Source of the DNA: an uncultured Acidobacteriota bacterium
GTDB lineage: Bacteria > Acidobacteriota > Thermoanaerobaculia > UBA5066
Assembly (NCBI GenBank): GCA_963779415.1
Contig: CAVZYA010000001.1
Location: 1,568,001-1,632,000 of the forward strand
Length of the DNA: 64,000 nt
Direction: 5' to 3'
Part shown: positions 5,562 through 14,094 of the stretch, piece by piece
Layout: the number at the start of each line of letters is the position of its first letter
Numbering within the stretch: position 1 is the first letter of the stretch
The notes under the pieces: model-generated
Told to the model about the DNA's origin: nothing
The model's database searches: none
What the model saw: the letters and a program-made list of their open reading frames with translations, nothing else
Made by a program: the position numbers and the translations under genes

Positions 5562-5633
5562 CGCCAGATCCTCCGTACACGATAGTCCGTAAAACTTCAG
5601 ACGCCATAATGCGTATCTCGCGTGGAGGTATAC

Positions 5634-8600
5634 ATGCGCCATCTCTTCCGGGTCCTCGGCGTGGCTCTCCTTCTGCACACCGGTCTCCTGCAGGCCCTGA
5701 CGGTGGACGAGATCGCCGCCCGCCACATCGAGGCGCGCGGCGGGATGGAGAAGATCCGGGCCATCCGGTCGCTCCGCCTCACCGGAAAGGTCCTTTTCGG
5801 CGGGGGCGACTTCTCGATCAACGTGGCCTTTGCCCGGGCGGTCGAGCGCCCGGGGCTTCTTCGCGACGAGATCACGCTGCAGGGGCTGACCGCCGTGGAC
5901 GCCTGGGACGGGAAGGACGCCTGGAGCGTCCAGCCCTTCGAGGGCCGCCGCGATCCCTACCGGGCCGCGGCCGACGAGGCGCGCGCCCGCGCCGAGGAAG
6001 CCGACTTCGAGGGGCCGCTCGTCGGGTGGCGCGAGAAGGGGAACACCGTGGAGTACCTCGGGACCGAGGACGTGGACGGGACGCCGGCCCTCAAGCTCCG
6101 CGTCACGCTCAAAGACGGCAACGTCGTGACCCTCTACCTCGACCCCGACCTCTACTTGACGATCCGGGAGGCCCGCAAGCGGTTCGTCCGCGGGACCGAG
6201 CAGCTCCAGGAGTCCGACTTCGGGAGCTACGGACCGATCGCCGGCGTCCTCTTCCCGTTCTCGATCGAGTCGGGCGCGCCGAACCGGCCGCGCATGTCGA
6301 AGCTGACGATCGAGACGGCCGAGGCGAACGTCGAGTTCGACCCGTCGCTCTTCCGCTTCCCCGCCGCCGGAGCCGCGGTGACCCGCGCGATCCTCCCCGG
6401 GCCGAACGCGAAGGTCGAGGCCGCGAAGGCGACGCCCCGCCCGGCGGCCGCGGGGGCGCCGGTCCTCGACGCCGGCATCCTCTCCGGCCTCGGCGCCCGG
6501 AACATCGGGTCGGCCACGATGAGCGGCCGGATCTCGGCCCTCGACGCGCACAACAAGGGGGGGAAGACGACCTTCTTCGTCGGCGCGGCGAGCGGCGGCG
6601 TCTGGCGGTCGATCGACGGCGGGACGACCTTCCGCCCGGTCTTCGACAAGATGCCGGTCCAGTCGATCGGAGCCATCACGATCGACCCGACGAACCCGAA
6701 AACGGTCTGGGTCGGGACGGGCGAGAGCTGGGTGCGGAACTCCGTCTCCGTCGGCGACGGGATCTACAAGTCGACGGACGGGGGCGAGACCTGGACGAAC
6801 ATGGGGCTCCCCGAGTCGGAACGGATCGTCCGGATCCTCGTCCACCCGAAGGACGGGAACGTCGTCTACGCCTGCGTCCCCGGAAAGCTCTGGAGCGACA
6901 GCGCCGACCGCGGCCTCTACAAGACGACCGACGGCGGGAAGAACTGGTCGCTCGTCCTTCCGGGCCCGAACCTCTCGACGGGGTGCGGCTCGGTGACGAT
7001 GGACCCGAAGGACCCCGAGGTCCTCTTCGCCTCCCTCTGGGACTTCCGCCGGAAGGGGTGGACTTTCCGCTCCGGCGGCGACGGCCCGAAGGCCCCGAGC
7101 GGGAGCGGCCTCTTCCGGACGGCCGACGGCGGGAAGAGCTGGACGCCCTTGACCTCCGCGTCGAACAAGGGGCTCCCGCCGGCGCCCTGGGGGCGCGTCG
7201 AGGCGGCGTTCGCCCCCTCCGACCCGAAGGTCGTTTACGCCCTCGTCGAGGACACCGACTCGGCCCTCTACCGCTCGGCCGACGGCGGCGCCACGTGGGA
7301 GGCGCGCGACAAGAGCCAGGGGATGGTCTGGCGCCCCTTCTACTTCGCGCGGCTCATCGTCGACCCGAAGAACCCTGACAAGGTCTGGAAGCCCGGCCTC
7401 GGCCTGACGGTCAGCGAGGACGGGGGGCGGAGCTTCGCATACAGCGGAGGGCGCGCCCACGGCGACTGGCACGACGTCTGGGTCGACCCGGACAACCCGC
7501 AGCACGTGGCCGGCGGGGACGACGGCGGGTTCTGGATCTCGTGGGACGGCGGGACGCGCTGGTGGAAGACCGGCAACCTGCCCGTCTCGCAGTTCTACCA
7601 CGTGAGCGTCGACGCCAAGGACCCCTACCACGTCTACGGCGGCCTCCAGGACAACAGCAACTGGGTCGGCGACTCCTTCTACGGCGGCGGCATCACGAAC
7701 GCGCGCTGGGAGAACCTCGGAGGAGGGGACGGCTTCTGGGTGGTCGTCGACCCGTCCGACCCGAACATCGTCTACGCCGAGTCGCAGGGGGGCTACGTCA
7801 CGCGCGTCGACCGGCGGACCGACGCCTCGCGCGACATCCAGCCGAAGGCCCTCTACAAGGAGAAGCTCCGCTTCAACTGGAACACGCCGCTCGCCGTGAG
7901 CCCGACCGACGGCAAGTCCGTCTACATCGGCTCGCAGTACCTCTTCCGGACGCGGGACAAAGGGGACACCTGGGAGCGGATCTCGCCGGACCTGACGACG
8001 AACGACCCGGAGAAGCAGAAGCAGGAGGAGTCCGGGGGCGTCACGGTCGACAACTCGTCGGCCGAGATGTACACGACGATCTACTCGATCTCCGAGTCGC
8101 CGAAGGATCCGAGCGTGATCTGGGTCGGGACGGACGACGGAAACGTCCAATTGACGCGCGACGGCGGGAAGAGCTGGACGAACGTCGTCGGGAACGTCCC
8201 GGGCCTGCCGAAGGGGGCGTGGGTGAGCTGGGTGGAGGCGAGCCGCTACGACGCCGCGACCGCCTACGCCACCTTCGACCGGCATACCTACGGCGACGTG
8301 TCGCCGTGGGCCTACCGGACGACCGACTACGGGAAGAGCTGGACGCGGATCGTCGGCCCCGCGAGCGGAGTCCGCGGTTACGCCCACGTGATCCGGGAAG
8401 ACACGGTCAAGCCGACCCTCCTCTTCCTCGGCACGGAGAAGGGCCTCTTCATCTCCGTCGACGGCGGCGGGCAGTGGGCCGAGTTCAAGGGCGGGGAGTT
8501 CCCGAGCGTCGCTGTCCGCGACCTCGTGGTCCAGCCGCGCGAGAACGACCTCGTGATCGGGACGCACGGGCGGGGGATCTGGATCGTGGACGACCTGACG

Positions 8601-9491
8601 CCGCTGCGCGCCCTCGGCCCCGAGGTCCTCGCGAAGGACGCCGCCTTCCTCCCGGGCCGCCCCGTCCAGCAGCGGATGGGGGCCGTGGGAGGCTGGGTCG
8701 AAGGGGACGCCGCCTTCGTCGGCGAGAACCCGCCCGGCGGCGCCGTCATCACCTACTACCAGAGGACCCGCCATCTCCTCGGGCCGATCAAGCTCGAGAT
8801 CCTCGACGCGTCCGGCAAGGTCGTCGCGACGCTGAACCCGCCCAAGCGCCGCGGTATCAACCGCGTCACCTGGTCGATGCAGGTCCCGCCGCCGCGCGTG
8901 CCGCGGGCGGCCACGCTCGCCTTCGGCGCCTCGCAGGGGCCGAGGGTTCTCCCGGGTGTTTACTCGGTCCGGCTCACGAAGGGGAGCGAGGTCATCGAGG
9001 GGACGCTTCCGATCGGCCTCGACCGCCGGGCCCCTTACACGGCGGCCGACCGGAAGGAGCAGTTCGACGCCGCGATGCGCGTTCACGCCCTCTTCGGCGA
9101 CATGAGCGCCCTCGTCGACAAGATCGAGGCTTCGAAGGGCGCCGCCGACGCGAGGGCGAAGGCGGTCGGGGACGCGGACGCCCTGAAGCCGAAGCTCGCG
9201 ACGCTCTCGGGAAAGCTCGAGGAGGTCCGGAAGAAGATCGTCGCGACAAAGGAAGGGGGCGCGATCACGGGCGAGGAGCGGATCCGCGAGCATGCGGACC
9301 TCCTCTATTCGGCGCTCCTCGGCTGGGAAGGGAAGCCGGCCGCCTACCAGGTCGCGCGGATCGACGCCCTCCGGCACGAGCTGGACGACGTCGCGAAGGT
9401 GTATGCGGAGATCTCGGTGAAGGAGATCGCGCCGCTGAACGCCGAACTCGGGAAGAAGGGCCTCGCCGCGATCCCGGCCGGGACGCCGTGA
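5634..9491 (+). CDS. Secreted VPS10/BNR-repeat beta-propeller (glycosyl hydrolase-like) protein with N-terminal LolA-like domain
   Basis: SD GGAGGT before ATG 5634; signal peptide; many S/TxDGGxT/SW Asp-box repeats; RNIGSATMSGRI and GTHGRGIWIVDD. Confidence 0.85.
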   Translation: MRHLFRVLGVALLLHTGLLQALTVDEIAARHIEARGGMEKIRAIRSLRLTGKVLFGGGDFSINVAFARAVERPGLLRDEITLQGLTAVDAWDGKDAWSVQPFEGRRDPYRAAADEARARAEEADFEGPLVGWREKGNTVEYLGTEDVDGTPALKLRVTLKDGNVVTLYLDPDLYLTIREARKRFVRGTEQLQESDFGSYGPIAGVLFPFSIESGAPNRPRMSKLTIETAEANVEFDPSLFRFPAAGAAVTRAILPGPNAKVEAAKATPRPAAAGAPVLDAGILSGLGARNIGSATMSGRISALDAHNKGGKTTFFVGAASGGVWRSIDGGTTFRPVFDKMPVQSIGAITIDPTNPKTVWVGTGESWVRNSVSVGDGIYKSTDGGETWTNMGLPESERIVRILVHPKDGNVVYACVPGKLWSDSADRGLYKTTDGGKNWSLVLPGPNLSTGCGSVTMDPKDPEVLFASLWDFRRKGWTFRSGGDGPKAPSGSGLFRTADGGKSWTPLTSASNKGLPPAPWGRVEAAFAPSDPKVVYALVEDTDSALYRSADGGATWEARDKSQGMVWRPFYFARLIVDPKNPDKVWKPGLGLTVSEDGGRSFAYSGGRAHGDWHDVWVDPDNPQHVAGGDDGGFWISWDGGTRWWKTGNLPVSQFYHVSVDAKDPYHVYGGLQDNSNWVGDSFYGGGITNARWENLGGGDGFWVVVDPSDPNIVYAESQGGYVTRVDRRTDASRDIQPKALYKEKLRFNWNTPLAVSPTDGKSVYIGSQYLFRTRDKGDTWERISPDLTTNDPEKQKQEESGGVTVDNSSAEMYTTIYSISESPKDPSVIWVGTDDGNVQLTRDGGKSWTNVVGNVPGLPKGAWVSWVEASRYDAATAYATFDRHTYGDVSPWAYRTTDYGKSWTRIVGPASGVRGYAHVIREDTVKPTLLFLGTEKGLFISVDGGGQWAEFKGGEFPSVAVRDLVVQPRENDLVIGTHGRGIWIVDDLTPLRALGPEVLAKDAAFLPGRPVQQRMGAVGGWVEGDAAFVGENPPGGAVITYYQRTRHLLGPIKLEILDASGKVVATLNPPKRRGINRVTWSMQVPPPRVPRAATLAFGASQGPRVLPGVYSVRLTKGSEVIEGTLPIGLDRRAPYTAADRKEQFDAAMRVHALFGDMSALVDKIEASKGAADARAKAVGDADALKPKLATLSGKLEEVRKKIVATKEGGAITGEERIREHADLLYSALLGWEGKPAAYQVARIDALRHELDDVAKVYAEISVKEIAPLNAELGKKGLAAIPAGTP

Positions 9492-9517
9492 GGTCCGCGA
9501 GTCTCTACAATCGGGCC

Positions 9518-9751
9518 ATGACAGCGAAGAAGAGCGTCGTCATCTTCGGCAAGGACACCTGACCGCACACGACGGCGGCCCGTGAGGACTTCGCCGCGCG
9601 CGGATACCGGGTCGACTACCGGAACGCGAAGGAGTCGCCCGGGGACCTCGAGGAGATGCTCCGCCGGACGAACGGCCGGCGGCAGGTCCCCGTCATCGTC
9701 GAGGGAGACGTCGTCTCGATCGGATTCGACGGAGGAGCCTGAGGGATCTGA
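9518..9751 (+). CDS. Glutaredoxin-like selenoprotein with two Sec (UXX-star type), 77 aa
   Basis: MTAKKSVVIFGKDT-U-PHTTAAREDFAARGYRVDYRNAKESPGDLEEMLRRTNGRRQVPVIVEGDVVSIGFDGGA-U-GI*. UGA at 9560 and 9740, each followed by a hairpin; Grx VP (cis-Pro) motif and IGF. Confidence 0.8.
9563..9603 (+). promoter_or_regulatory. Putative SECIS element for UGA 9560
   Basis: Stem CGGCGG/TCGCCG capped by CC-GTGA-GG; G-initiated apical loop about 19 nt after the UGA. Confidence 0.5.
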
Positions 9752-9770
9752 CGGGGCCGGTCCGGCCCCG
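9752..9770 (+). promoter_or_regulatory. Putative SECIS element for UGA 9740
   Basis: Perfect hairpin CGGGGCC-GGTCC-GGCCCCG; loop starts 16 nt after UGA 9740 but only 7 nt after the terminal UGA 9749; no U-tract. Confidence 0.55.
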
Positions 9771-9797
9771 CCGAGAACCCGAGGCCGGGCGCGCGGA

Positions 9798-10673
9798 TCA
9801 GAGGTCGCGCGCCTTGAAGGTGTCGCAGCCGGCGACGTCGCCGGTTTCGAGCCCCCGCCGGAACCACTTGACACGTTGCGCCGAGGAGCCGTGGGTGAAC
9901 GACTCCGGGCGGACGCCGCGTCCCGCGCTCCGCTGGAGCCGGTCGTCACCGATGGCGGCCGCCGCGTTCAGCCCCGACTCGACGTCCCCGGACTCGAGGA
10001 TCCCACGCTCGCTCGTCGAGTGGCCCCAGACGCCCGCAAGGCAGTCGGCCTGAAGCTCCAGCCGGACGGAGAGAGCGTTCGCGAGGTCCGGCCGCGACTC
10101 CTGCGCGCGGCGCATCTCGCGCTCGATCCCGAGGAGGTTCTGGACGTGATGCCCCAGCTCGTGAGCGACGACGTAGGCCTCGGCGAACTCGCCCGGCGCC
10201 CCGAAGCGGCGCTGAAGATCGTCGTAGAAGGCGAGGTCGATGTAGACCTTCCGGTCGCCCGGGCAGTAGAAGGGACCGCTCGCCGCGCTCGCGAAGCCGC
10301 AGGCGGAGTCGATCGCGTCGGTGAAGAGAACGAGTTTCGCCCGCTCGTACCGCCCGTCGAGGAGTCGCCCCCACGTCGCTTGCGCGTCGTCGAGGACGAA
10401 GGAGACGAACTGCACCCGCTGATCCTCGCTCGCCCGCGCCGCGGTCGAGGGGCCGGGCCGCGTCGAGGACGAAGGGGCAGGGGCGACGGTCGCCTCCGGG
10501 CCGCCGGAGAGAAGGGCGAAGAAGTCCTTCTTGAAGACGATCGAGAGGACCGCGAGAAGAATAAAGCCTCCGAGTCCGAGGCGCATTCCCCCGCCGCCGA
10601 AGCCCCCTCCCGCCGGAGTCTCACCTCTCCGATCCTCGACGTCCTCGCTCTGCCCGCCCGGCGTCCAGCGCAT
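9798..10673 (-). CDS. Neutral zinc metallopeptidase (YpfJ-like)
   Basis: SEDVEDRRG N-terminus, SGPFYCPGD, AHELGHHVQ (HExxH), ELQADCLAG, FTHGSSAQR. Confidence 0.92.
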   Translation of the reverse strand: MRWTPGGQSEDVEDRRGETPAGGGFGGGGMRLGLGGFILLAVLSIVFKKDFFALLSGGPEATVAPAPSSSTRPGPSTAARASEDQRVQFVSFVLDDAQATWGRLLDGRYERAKLVLFTDAIDSACGFASAASGPFYCPGDRKVYIDLAFYDDLQRRFGAPGEFAEAYVVAHELGHHVQNLLGIEREMRRAQESRPDLANALSVRLELQADCLAGVWGHSTSERGILESGDVESGLNAAAAIGDDRLQRSAGRGVRPESFTHGSSAQRVKWFRRGLETGDVAGCDTFKARDL

Positions 10674-10698
10674 GCTCGTCCCCCTCCCGGTGCGGAAT

Positions 10699-12336
10699 CT
10701 ACTCGATCGCCGCCGTCGACCGCACCTGCTGGCGGAGCAGGTACTTCTGGATCTTCCCGGTGGACGTCTTCGGGATCGGCTGAAAGATGAACGCCTTCGG
10801 CACCTTGAAGTGGGCCATCCGCTCGCGGCAGAACTCCCGAAGCTCCTCGGCGGTGGCGCTCCTTCCCTCCCGAAGCTCGACGTAGGCGCACGGGACCTCT
10901 CCCCACTTCGGGTCGGGGGTCGCGACGACCGCGGCGGTCAGGACCGCCGGATGCCGGTAGAGCGTCTCCTCGATCTCGACGGAGGAGATGTTCTCTCCCC
11001 CCGAGATGATGATGCCCTTCGACCGGTCCCTGATCTTGACGTACCCGTCCTCCTCCCGCACGGCGAGGTCGCCCGTGTGGTACCAGCCGCCGCGGAAGGC
11101 CTCCTCGGTCGCCTTCGGGTTCTTCAGGTACCCCTTCATCGTCAGGTTCCCTCGAAACATGATTTCGCCCATCGTCTCGCCGTCACGCGGGACGGGCTGC
11201 ATCGTCTGCGGATCGAGGACCGTGACCGCCTCCTGCATGTGATAGCGGACCCCCTGCCGGCCGTTCCGCTCCGTTCGCTCCTCGATCGTCAGGGCTCCCC
11301 ACTCCTGGTGCTTGGCGCAGATCGCGGCCGGCCCGTAGGTCTCGGTCAGGCCGTAGACGTGGGTGATGTCGAAGCCGATCCGCTCCATCCCCTCGATCAC
11401 GGCGGAAGGCGGCGGCGCCGCGGCCACGAGTGCAAAGACCCGGTGGTCGATCCCCTCCCGCCACGCGGCCGGAGCGCTCACGAGGAGCGAGTGGACGACG
11501 GGCGCGCCGCAGTAATGCGTCACCCGGTGCTTCCGGATCGCTTCGAGGATCCGCTTCGCGTCGACGCGGCGAAGGCAGATGTTGGTCCCCGAATTCGCCG
11601 CGAGAGTCCAGGGGAAGCACCAGCCGTTGCAGTGGAACATCGGAAGCGTCCAGAGGTAGACGGCGTGCGGCGGCATCCCCCAGCTGACGATGTTGGAGAC
11701 GGCGTTCAGGTAGGCGCCCCTGTGGTGATAGACGACCCCCTTCGGATTCCCGGTCGTCCCCGACGTGTAGTTGAGGGAGATCGCGTCCCACTCGTCGGCG
11801 GGGCCCCGCCACGCGTATTCGGCGTCGCCCCCGGCGAGAAGCTCCTCGTAGCCGATCCCGCCGATGCCGTCGGCGGGGAGGCGCGCCTCGGAGTCGTGCA
11901 CGTCGACGAGGAGGAGCGGCCGCGGGATCCGGGCGACGGCCTGCCTCATCCGCTCGGCGAACTCGCTGTCGCAGATCACGGCCCGGGCCTCGCCATGTTC
12001 GAGCATGAAGGCGATCGTCTCGACATCGAGGCGGGTGTTGATCGTGTGGAGGACCGCTCCCGCCATCGGCACGCCAAAGTGACATTCGTACATCTCCGGC
12101 GTGTTCGCGAGCATCACGGAGACTGTCTCTCCCGGGCCGACCCCGCTCGCGGCGAGCGCCGACGCGAGGCGCCGGCAGCGCGCGTACGTCTCGCTCCAGG
12201 TGTAGGAGCGCGCGCCATGGACGACCGCGAGGCGGTCCGGGTAGACGGAGGCCGAACGCTCGAGAAAGGTGAGCGGCGTCAGCGGAACGTAGTTCGCGGC
12301 GTTCCTTTCGAGACCGGTCCGGTAGAGGTTCGTCAT
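10699..12336 (-). CDS. Acyl-CoA synthetase (AMP-forming)
   Basis: YTSGTTGNPKG, YGLTE, WYHTGDLA, IISGGENI, PKTSTGKIQK. Confidence 0.95.
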   Translation of the reverse strand: MTNLYRTGLERNAANYVPLTPLTFLERSASVYPDRLAVVHGARSYTWSETYARCRRLASALAASGVGPGETVSVMLANTPEMYECHFGVPMAGAVLHTINTRLDVETIAFMLEHGEARAVICDSEFAERMRQAVARIPRPLLLVDVHDSEARLPADGIGGIGYEELLAGGDAEYAWRGPADEWDAISLNYTSGTTGNPKGVVYHHRGAYLNAVSNIVSWGMPPHAVYLWTLPMFHCNGWCFPWTLAANSGTNICLRRVDAKRILEAIRKHRVTHYCGAPVVHSLLVSAPAAWREGIDHRVFALVAAAPPPSAVIEGMERIGFDITHVYGLTETYGPAAICAKHQEWGALTIEERTERNGRQGVRYHMQEAVTVLDPQTMQPVPRDGETMGEIMFRGNLTMKGYLKNPKATEEAFRGGWYHTGDLAVREEDGYVKIRDRSKGIIISGGENISSVEIEETLYRHPAVLTAAVVATPDPKWGEVPCAYVELREGRSATAEELREFCRERMAHFKVPKAFIFQPIPKTSTGKIQKYLLRQQVRSTAAIE

Positions 12337-12535: not shown

Positions 12536-13870
12536 TCAGCGACGGTGCCCGCCGCCATGCGAACCGCCACCGGCGCTGAAGCCACCGCCGGACCAGTGTG
12601 AGCCGCCGGCGCTACCGAAGCTGCGCCCGCTACTTGTCGGCGCATACCCCCGCGGCGCCGGAGCCGAGTACCGCTGTGCCGGAGCCGAGTACCGCTGTAC
12701 CGGTGCCGAGTACCGCTGTACGGGAGCCGAGTACCGCTGTACCGGAGCCGAGTACCGCTGTGCCGGAGCCGCGGATCGCCGCGTCGGAATCTGGCCGCGT
12801 GTCGTGCCGCGGGAGGTTCGCCACGCCTCATCCGATGCGCGGCTCACGCGAGGCGAACCCGCATAGCGAGAACTCTGCTCAAACGACCGGCTTTGGTTCC
12901 TTGACACCGTCCCGGCCCCGAACCGGTTCCAGTTCCCGGGTCTCGCCGTCAGGTTCCGGGAAGCCATCGAGCCAGCGTTGTAGCGCGCGGCAACCCTTCT
13001 GTCCGGGTAGCTGACTCCGTGACGGTGACCGGGATCGTGATGCCAGTCCCCTCTGCCGCCATGCCCGCCCGGCAAGTACCTGCAGTGGTAGCCATAGTGT
13101 CGGAAGAAGGGTCCGTTGACGTACACCGATCCGCCGAACCAGTTCGGGCCCCAGCCCCAGCCCCACGCCCAGCCCGGCCAGCTGCCGAAGCAGAATCCGA
13201 TGTCGATGGCCGGACCGAATCCATAACCCCAAGGGTACGAGAGGGCCGGATAGTAACCCCACGCCGGAGCTCCCCAGACATAGGCGGGATCGTATTGGGG
13301 CACGTAGATCACCTGCGGATCGGCCGGTGCGATGTCGATGGCCGTCAGTCCGTTATCCGTCTCGGTCGTGACGATCTGCTGTGGAGTGGAAGAGAGCTTG
13401 CCGCTGGCCTTCGCCCGCGCACGCAGCCGCTGAACCGCGGCCATCACATCCGATCGCTGCGCGAGGAAGGCGTTGCCTAATGCCGCCGTCCACTCGACGT
13501 CCCGGTTCATCGTCGCCAGGACGTCGGGGAAGGCCACGAGGCTCTGAACGCTGGCGTCCCAATCCTGCTCGCGGGCGGCATCCGTCAGCTGCTGTCCCTT
13601 GAGACTTCCATTCCGCTCCAGCCACTGCTGCGCCTCTACGACCTCCAGCGGGTAAGTGCTCGCCACGAGGATCTGACTCAGCAGAGGATCGGGATAGAGC
13701 GCGATGGGAGCCACGAGATCAGCCAGCTGGTCCGGAGTCAGCTTCTCCGCCTGGATCGACGCCTGATCTCCGGCCCCCCCGGTGGACGCCTGTTCCTGGG
13801 CCATCGACACGAACGGAATTCCCGTTAAAACCGCTAACACCAAGACCTGACGCGCCAATCGAGATTTCAT
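12536..13870 (-). CDS. DUF3300 domain exported protein with low-complexity Gly/Arg tail
   Basis: LVAPIALYPDPLLSQILVASTYPLEVV, WDASVQSL, IYVPQYDP; signal peptide after ATG 13870. Confidence 0.88.
   Translation of the reverse strand: MKSRLARQVLVLAVLTGIPFVSMAQEQASTGGAGDQASIQAEKLTPDQLADLVAPIALYPDPLLSQILVASTYPLEVVEAQQWLERNGSLKGQQLTDAAREQDWDASVQSLVAFPDVLATMNRDVEWTAALGNAFLAQRSDVMAAVQRLRARAKASGKLSSTPQQIVTTETDNGLTAIDIAPADPQVIYVPQYDPAYVWGAPAWGYYPALSYPWGYGFGPAIDIGFCFGSWPGWAWGWGWGPNWFGGSVYVNGPFFRHYGYHCRYLPGGHGGRGDWHHDPGHRHGVSYPDRRVAARYNAGSMASRNLTARPGNWNRFGAGTVSRNQSRSFEQSSRYAGSPRVSRASDEAWRTSRGTTRGQIPTRRSAAPAQRYSAPVQRYSAPVQRYSAPVQRYSAPAQRYSAPAPRGYAPTSSGRSFGSAGGSHWSGGGFSAGGGSHGGGHRR
12658..12771. repeat. 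21-bp coding tandem repeat, about 5.4 copies, encoding SAP(V/A)QRY
   Basis: CCGGAGCCGAGTACCGCTGT(A/G) units at 12658, 12679, 12700, 12721, 12742 plus a partial copy. Confidence 0.95.
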
Positions 13871-14094
13871 CTTCCACCCCCTTGGCGGACCCACACCGAG
13901 AAGACGCAACGCTCGTGCCGCCGTGGCGTCACCCCAAGGATACGTCGAGGGGAAACGTATGGTGCCGACTTTCGGTGTGCGCCGCGCTCCCGGTGCCGCG
14001 ATTGTCCCTGAAGCCCCTGCTGGGCCCTGTGCGACGATTGGTCCGTGGACATCTCTGATCCCGAGATCTCGTGCCGAGCGGTCTCGGGCCACCG

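Follow-up and report, generated by a model that had tools for sequence, protein, structure and literature searches.

The 64,000-nucleotide stretch of DNA analysed here (the window) very probably carries, at 9518-9751 of the forward strand (stop codon included), a genuine and intact gene for a 77-residue glutaredoxin-like selenoprotein of UXX-star family 1, in which two in-frame UGA codons are decoded as selenocysteine (Sec, U). The hairpin directly behind the stop codon (9752-9770, SECIS 2) is, on comparative sequence evidence, a bacterial SECIS element that sits completely in the 3' untranslated region (UTR), beyond the coding sequence. A reading that joins these elements and goes further, which we offer tentatively and regard as possible rather than probable, is that this natural 3'-UTR SECIS recruits SelB for UGA75 while it blocks recoding of the terminal UGA, and that the protein is a minimal diselenide selenoredoxin made of an active site and a three-residue tail. 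The gene is missed by standard gene callers, since they would stop at codon 15, and it is evidence of selenocysteine use by this soil-type bacterium.

The gene and its product

The ATG of the gene lies at 9518 and its frame contains TGA triplets at 9560-9562, 9740-9742 and 9749-9751, which correspond to codons 15, 75 and 78, the last being the stop codon. With both UGAs read as Sec, the product of 77 residues is MTAKKSVVIFGKDT-U-PHT...QVPVIV...IGFDGGA-U-GI-stop, where codon 15 (9560-9562) supplies the Sec of the active-site motif U-P-H-T and codon 75 (9740-9742) that of a C-terminal U-G-I-stop tail. A glutaredoxin-like read-through frame ending in a U-x-x-stop tail had been proposed for the gap between the VPS10 and peptidase genes in a preliminary description of this DNA, and all of its elements, including the tail, were indeed read at the positions described.

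Upstream, a Sortilin-Vps10/BNR open reading frame (ORF) of 1289 aa (5622-9491, + strand) ends 26 nt before the gene, and downstream a PF04228 zinc-peptidase ORF (9798-10673, - strand) is convergent with it. Three further ORFs that overlap the small gene or its neighbors, 9344-9949 (-), 9582-10790 (+) and 7541-9562 (+), were dismissed as shadow ORFs typical of DNA with 68% G+C. Farther downstream, a 518-aa DUF3300 protein (12536-14092, -) adjoins an AMP-binding ligase (10699-12336, -), both unrelated to the selenoprotein gene.

In metagenomic data, the window is matched without a difference over 9555-9828 by two contigs of run X1, each of 151 nt, which places all three TGAs in short-read data as well; X1 is possibly the source sample, and the identity hence speaks for the accuracy of the sequence and not for an independent occurrence. 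In covering contigs of other runs, with 85-99% identity to the window, the first UGA is unchanged. At 9565 and 9571 the variants alter third codon positions synonymously and no TGA is touched, and we count these variants in favor of the gene, as a sign of purifying selection on it. The contigs matched here are of DNA, and no RNA run was found for 9100-10100.

Family assignment and fold

The product (with Sec passed as Cys) matches NF041114, the NCBIfam equivalog model "UXX-star selenoprotein family 1," with 102.2 bits against a cut-off of 72 and over positions 1-70 of the 70 in the profile, and the parent model NF041212 with 84.2 bits against a cut-off of 66. Both scores bear out the UXX-star membership suggested in the preliminary description, while the models of UXX-star families 2 and 3 and of ordinary glutaredoxins stayed far below their cut-offs. 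In Pfam, the product is recognized by PF00462 (Glutaredoxin, 38.4 bits). An AlphaFold2 model computed on a 44-row alignment reached a mean pLDDT of 95.5, and a Foldseek search returned glutaredoxin and NrdH folds with TM-scores of about 0.7-0.76. The alignment profile matched Escherichia coli Grx3 with an E-value of 3e-7 and aligned its CPYC to the C/U-P-Y-T of the UXX-star family. The first UGA thus falls on the first Cys of CPYC, i.e., on the N-terminal active-site Cys of glutaredoxins, as had been claimed for it. A chance ORF is ruled out by the HMM score and by 118 homologous loci.

The gene therefore belongs to a known family and its novelty is low, since the family is already curated and reviewed. 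A recent review lists it as "Distant Grx-like protein 1" with a UxxT motif and two Sec, and credits Zhang and Gladyshev, 2008 (PMC13188914, published in 2026). The passages seen of the latter paper contain a "Grx-like" row with the motif UxxC, and the family name used in the review is not among these passages (Zhang and Gladyshev, 2008, PMC2398784). For other UXX-star families the review refers to Haft and Tolstoy, 2025 (mSystems, doi 10.1128/msystems.01417-24).

Conservation at the two UGA codons

Translated in six frames, 401 genomes from the same phylum were scanned with NF041212; matches with E <= 1e-5 occurred in 237 genomes and matches above the cut-off in 86 (tallies that include three unpublished genomes), and many of the matches contain one or two in-frame TGAs. 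From these, 44 loci were parsed: the window, 24 of the 30 best matches, and 19 of 20 further loci picked for having two TGAs, a choice by which the share of forms with Sec at both sites (U/U) is inflated among the 44. The twentieth of these two-TGA loci (L055) was off-pattern and is a U/U form when read by eye. The loci dropped from the 30 best were two from unpublished genomes (L030, L031), three CPYC-type loci that were off-pattern (L039, L048, L053) and a misparsed one (L041). These last four encode CPYC-type glutaredoxin-like proteins whose tails, e.g., ...GRGUTV.., are closed by an in-frame stop after a few more codons, and probably represent other UXX-star families (NF041211, NF047338).

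At the active site (site 1), 34 of the 44 loci have U and 10 have C; at the tail site, 43 have U and one (L047) has C. In all of them the tail site is followed by exactly two codons and then by TGA, TAG or TAA. The U/U form is kept in five of seven genomes of the same genus.

A second set was retrieved from named public genomes using a pattern that requires Cys at site 1. It comprised 80 loci, mostly from Acidobacteriota (Vicinamibacteria) and also from Deltaproteobacteria/Myxococcota and Thermodesulfobacteriota, with one locus from Planctomycetales and one from Betaproteobacteria. Seventy-four of them could be parsed; all 74 have Cys at site 1, as the retrieval pattern demanded, and 73 of them carry TGA at the tail site and one (L112) carries TGC, again with two codons and a stop in every case. 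The stop itself is TGA in 34 loci, TAG in 24 and TAA in 16. As the three stop codons interchange at the same place in the homologues, the terminating UGA of the window (codon 78, 9749-9751) is a true stop, which agrees with its earlier description as one that is not recoded.

Aligned at both UGAs, the homologues thus conserve Cys or UGA at codons 15 and 75, the very pattern whose absence would have spoken against the preliminary description. The invariant columns are G11, C/U15, P16, T18, V57, P58, G69, G72 and C/U75. The two codons past the tail UGA follow the pattern G-G-N G-U-N with free third positions, i.e., a conservation of the coding type. The tail Sec, with UGA in 116 of the 118 loci, is more constant than the active-site Sec, and the gene is a good example of this stricter retention.

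A SECIS element behind the stop codon

The sequence 9752-9770 (+ strand) is CGGGGCCG-GUC-CGGCCCCG, a perfect G+C hairpin stem of 8 bp with the loop GUC, whose first base directly follows the stop codon. It folds with -17.2 kcal/mol (z -2.54) and its loop G lies 17 nt past the second UGA. The published model of bacterial SECIS elements (bSECIS; PMC13188914, legend of Fig. 2) describes a loop of 3-9 nt, an upper stem of 4-16 bp, a G in the first two loop positions, a distance from UGA to loop of 16-37 nt and an MFE <= -7.5. SECIS 2 agrees with it in loop length (3 nt), stem (8 bp), position of the G (first) and spacing (17 nt).

A comparable hairpin (perfect stem of at least 7 bp, loop start at +18 to +26) was found behind the tail UGA in 34 of 43 phylum loci and in 44 of 73 loci from named genomes, compared with 157 of 2872 control UGA triplets (5.5%) of the first locus set. 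The position of its loop is fixed relative to the UGA (+19 to +24 in 35 of the 43 phylum loci), and the loops of the homologues are mostly GUC, GGC, GGU or GGUC. Covariation was evaluated on 12 relatives aligned with MAFFT without gaps (the window, five of the same genus, one of the same family and five of the same order; unpublished genomes were excluded), on which the hairpin structure of the window was imposed. Compensatory changes are seen in seven of the eight stem pairs, and 83.3% of the cells are paired, compared with 60.8 ± 3.8 in shuffles, none of which (0/500) reached this value; the covariation score is 0.54, vs. 0.11-0.27 for slid partners. Shuffles of the single tail hairpins are weak one by one in this G+C-rich DNA (e.g., 9/200 for the window), so that positional enrichment and covariation carry the argument for SECIS 2.

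The hairpin is not followed by a T-run and is therefore not terminator-like, and a consensus scan for promoters and terminators of the region 9300-9900 returned no site of either kind. A scan of 9300-10000 against Rfam with E-values up to 10 gave no SECIS family, but chance matches only (mir-602, HDV ribozyme and others), far below their gathering scores. Bacterial SECIS elements are in general stated to be placed in coding regions (PMC13188914). In contrast to this consensus, SECIS 2 sits entirely past the stop codon, a position that is forced by the U-x-x-stop architecture.

A candidate element behind the first UGA

The preliminary description had placed a G-led hairpin 16-19 nt behind each UGA. 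This is borne out for the second one (8 bp, GUC, 17 nt, covarying), while support for the first is indirect and comes from the conservation of codons, not from thermodynamics. The candidate SECIS 1 spans 9570-9602 (+ strand) inside the coding region and has the apical loop GUGA at 9582-9585. In MFE folds, G9582-U9583 lie in this 4-nt loop, closed by two C-G pairs, with an internal loop and a further 6-9 pairs below, and the fold has no extra stability over shuffles (z +0.62). RNAalifold on the 34 Sec forms retained only the mini-stem CC[GUGA]GG (2 pairs), and the G-U is found in the apical MFE loop in 12 of the 34, the others favoring a CCGUGA-GGA-UUACGG hairpin.

Codons 6-8 after the first UGA (9578-9586) are nevertheless highly uniform among the Sec forms, with GCC in 33, CGU in 31 and GAG in 27 of 34, which may owe something to the kinship of these loci, even though the Cys forms compared include those of the same phylum. 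Among the Cys forms of the two sets, GCC is found as the sixth codon in 2/10 and 17/74 and CGT as the seventh in 2/10 and 9/74, CGC and GCG being dominant; CGU accounts for a minority of the Arg codons in these G+C-rich genomes. The G-U lies about 20 nt downstream of the first UGA, at positions 23-24 with the U of UGA as position 1, which we take to match the loop bases contacted by SelB in the E. coli fdhF element. Compared with the bSECIS model, loop, G and spacing fit, but the upper stem comprises only 2 bp before the internal loop. In relatives of the same genus the codon behind GAG reads GCC and a clean GGCC-CGUGA-GGCC hairpin results, whereas in the window GAC breaks one pair, so that Asp24 weakens the stem. 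Judging from these patterns, SECIS 1 is probably a real element. Contigs of two metagenomic runs carry the variant A9588C (Asp24 to Ala), which would restore the GGCC/GGCC stem.

Gene start and putative leaderless mRNA

A -10-like hexamer, TACAAT (9506-9511, + strand), is located 6 nt before the ATG and is a candidate promoter of a leaderless mRNA. No Shine-Dalgarno motif was found near the ATG, the nearest GAGG being 24 nt upstream. A -10 box that ends 6 nt before the AUG is what one expects of leaderless mRNAs, as in Actinobacteria and other groups. The promoter scan of 9300-9900 gave no sigma-70-like consensus site upstream of the gene, because a -35 element is missing. TA[GC]AAT recurs at the same spacing in four of five homologues of the same genus, the fifth having GGAG. 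In the family as a whole, a TAnnnT hexamer starts exactly at -12 in 31 of the 116 loci with enough upstream sequence, compared with a background mean of 1.0 per position over 135 positions, among which no other exceeds 5. The leaderless transcript envisaged in the preliminary description has thereby gained comparative support, and the mRNA probably starts at the AUG, 7 nt after the TACAAT box. In 54 of the 118 family loci a Shine-Dalgarno-like motif takes the place of the hexamer, and the family seems to use leaderless expression in some members and leadered expression in others. In one genome of the same genus (G401, locus L169), the 3' end of the upstream gene nearly abuts the start codon and GGAG stands in place of TACAAT; this locus looks as if it had lost about 60 nt that are found in the window.

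Selenocysteine machinery and the apparent selB frameshifts

The genome was to be expected to contain selA, selB, selC and selD if the preliminary description was right. Three of these were found above their cut-offs: selA (C1:1779024-1780367; 439.7 bits, cut-off 267.9), selD (C2:866668-867636; 347.8 bits, cut-off 125) and tRNA-Sec (C3:20407-20501; 66.1 bits, also called as SeC with anticodon tca by ARAGORN). The fourth, selB (C2:454603-456530, - strand), is present and split over three frames. The selD gene (L010) itself contains one in-frame TGA, which is read as U in the translation ...SAGUACK..., presumably the catalytic Cys/Sec position, and it is therefore a second selenoprotein gene of this genome.

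Compared with the intact selB of a genome of the same genus (G403, 78% nucleotide identity), the gene has two 1-nt insertions, near C2:456128 and C2:455553. It shows no other indel and no stop in any of the three frame segments, and its C-terminus is conserved. The selB gene is uninterrupted in 19 of 21 relatives, including six of seven genomes of the same genus (a tally that includes two unpublished genomes), and not in the genome of the window (G000). If the two insertions were real, neither UGA could be decoded.

We counted frameshifts using 94 long ORFs with high GC3 from 160 kb around selB of G403 as queries against 290 kb of contig 2 of G000. Sixty-nine of them had ortholog-like matches, and for nine of these the match in G000 jumps between frames. 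Among the nine, six other genes share about eight clean switches of frame, two queries represent antisense shadows of selB and one is ambiguous. Consensus indels thus appear to occur roughly once per 8-10 kb of coding sequence in this region, and given such frequent frame switches elsewhere in G000, the breaks in selB look like consensus indels too. The rpoB and rpoC genes of the same genome, about 8.5 kb together, are free of frame breaks. With 3 contigs, the assembly reaches a completeness of 92.4%. The selB insertions are most likely errors of a frameshift-prone assembly.

Proposed decoding, function and alternative readings

In the scheme that we propose, SelB and Sec-tRNA(Sec) would decode both UGAs, and the final UGA would terminate translation because the SECIS 2 hairpin begins right after it. 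The protein itself consists of a monothiol-type active site (U/C-P-Y/H-T), the cis-Pro motif V-P and a GG motif that is followed by one residue, the Sec, two residues and the end of the chain; according to alignment and model, the C-terminal helix of glutaredoxins is absent. The GG motif lines the active site in glutaredoxins, and in some of these a Cys right after it can bond with the active-site Cys. The active site U-P-H-T would operate without the second Cys of CxxC, and the Sec of the short C-terminal tail, just past the GG motif, would act as partner in place of the missing resolving Cys. Residues 15 and 75 might then cycle between a diselenide (a selenenylsulfide in the Cys forms) and the reduced state, which would make the protein a minimal tail-assisted oxidoreductase. 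That tail Sec and active-site Sec form a redox couple is the best-supported reading of function, and we give it a roughly even chance.

Genomic context offers no functional lead, since no neighbor is conserved. The 88 flanking ORFs scanned for 22 loci (of 174 computed for the 44 loci) belong to unrelated families, such as MFS in three loci, succinyl-CoA ligase with S8 peptidase in two, SDF symporter in two, and others, and a tblastn search of the 12-kb loci from two genomes of the same order gave no match to the four neighbor proteins of the window.

With the same gene and the same decoding, the two Sec could instead serve as ligands of soft metals or metalloids (mercury, arsenic, copper or selenium itself), so that the protein would be a chaperone, a carrier or a detoxification protein, a reading that is also voiced in the review (PMC13188914). 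A flexible C-terminal selenolate beside a second selenolate or thiolate would be a plausible chelating pair, and no reductase partner is encoded nearby. However, there is also no metal-resistance gene among the flanking ORFs scanned for the 22 homologues or the neighbors in the window, and the protein has the fold and the active-site geometry of a thiol-disulfide oxidoreductase; we consider a metal-binding role rather unlikely, though worth keeping in mind.

The remaining alternatives concern decoding. One of them takes the first UGA alone as Sec, the second as the real stop and the hairpin as a transcription terminator. A G+C-rich hairpin right behind a stop does resemble a terminator, and three extra codons add little mass. 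But the in-frame stop exactly two codons later in all of the 44 and 74 parsed loci, the coding-type conservation of the codons between, the Cys that stands at the tail site in L047 and L112, again before two codons and a stop, the missing T-run, the loop held at +19 to +24 from the UGA in 35 of 43 loci, and the NF041114 model, which itself extends over the tail residue, all argue against this reading, and we regard it as extremely improbable. The other assumes that selB has truly been inactivated in this organism and that the gene is a recently stranded relic whose translation ends at codon 15. It would explain the two insertions relative to G403 in a gene that is uninterrupted in 19 of 21 relatives, and it gains from the intactness of rpoB and rpoC over about 8.5 kb. 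Against it stand the frequent frame switches of the assembly (9/69 ortholog-like queries split), its completeness of only 92.4% for 3 contigs, and a selB without other indels or stops and with a conserved C-terminus; moreover, selA, selD with its own UGA, tRNA-Sec and all invariant UXX-star residues are intact. Loss of decoding is in our estimate quite improbable, and we retain the reading of an intact gene with two decoded UGAs.

Comparison with known systems

The gene opens no new kind of system. What the present analysis adds is the comparative evidence for two recoding signals and for a leaderless start, together with a caution on selB in a frameshift-prone assembly. The comparative data amount to ready-made constructs for a first biochemical test, with a covarying SECIS behind the stop, the codons specific to Sec forms behind the first UGA and a recurrent promoter of the leaderless type.

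The product agrees with UXX-star family 1 in its glutaredoxin fold, its length (about 70-77 aa), its UxxT active site and its U-x-x-stop tail, and nothing essential differs. Traits at the level of the genus are UPHT for UPYT, GGAUGI for GGTUGV, an N-terminal extension of 6 residues and Asp24. Dithiol glutaredoxins and NrdH (Grx3, 3grx/1fov; NrdH, 1h75; Clostridium cGrx1, 7c10) have the same fold (TM 0.72-0.76) and have the position of the active site, the cis-Pro motif V-P and the GG motif in common with the product, whereas the latter has Thr in place of the second active-site Cys, lacks the C-terminal helix and ends three residues after the Sec that follows the GG motif.

Redox-active C-terminal tails are also known from animal thioredoxin reductase, and selenoproteins S and K have a penultimate Sec. 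The UXX-star product resembles them in having its Sec within the last residues, in a flexible tail and with a proposed pairing to Cys or Sec; the proteins are unrelated and the likeness is one of analogy only. With respect to the recoding signal, eukaryotic SECIS elements are located far downstream in the 3' UTR, whereas SECIS 2 directly abuts the stop codon.
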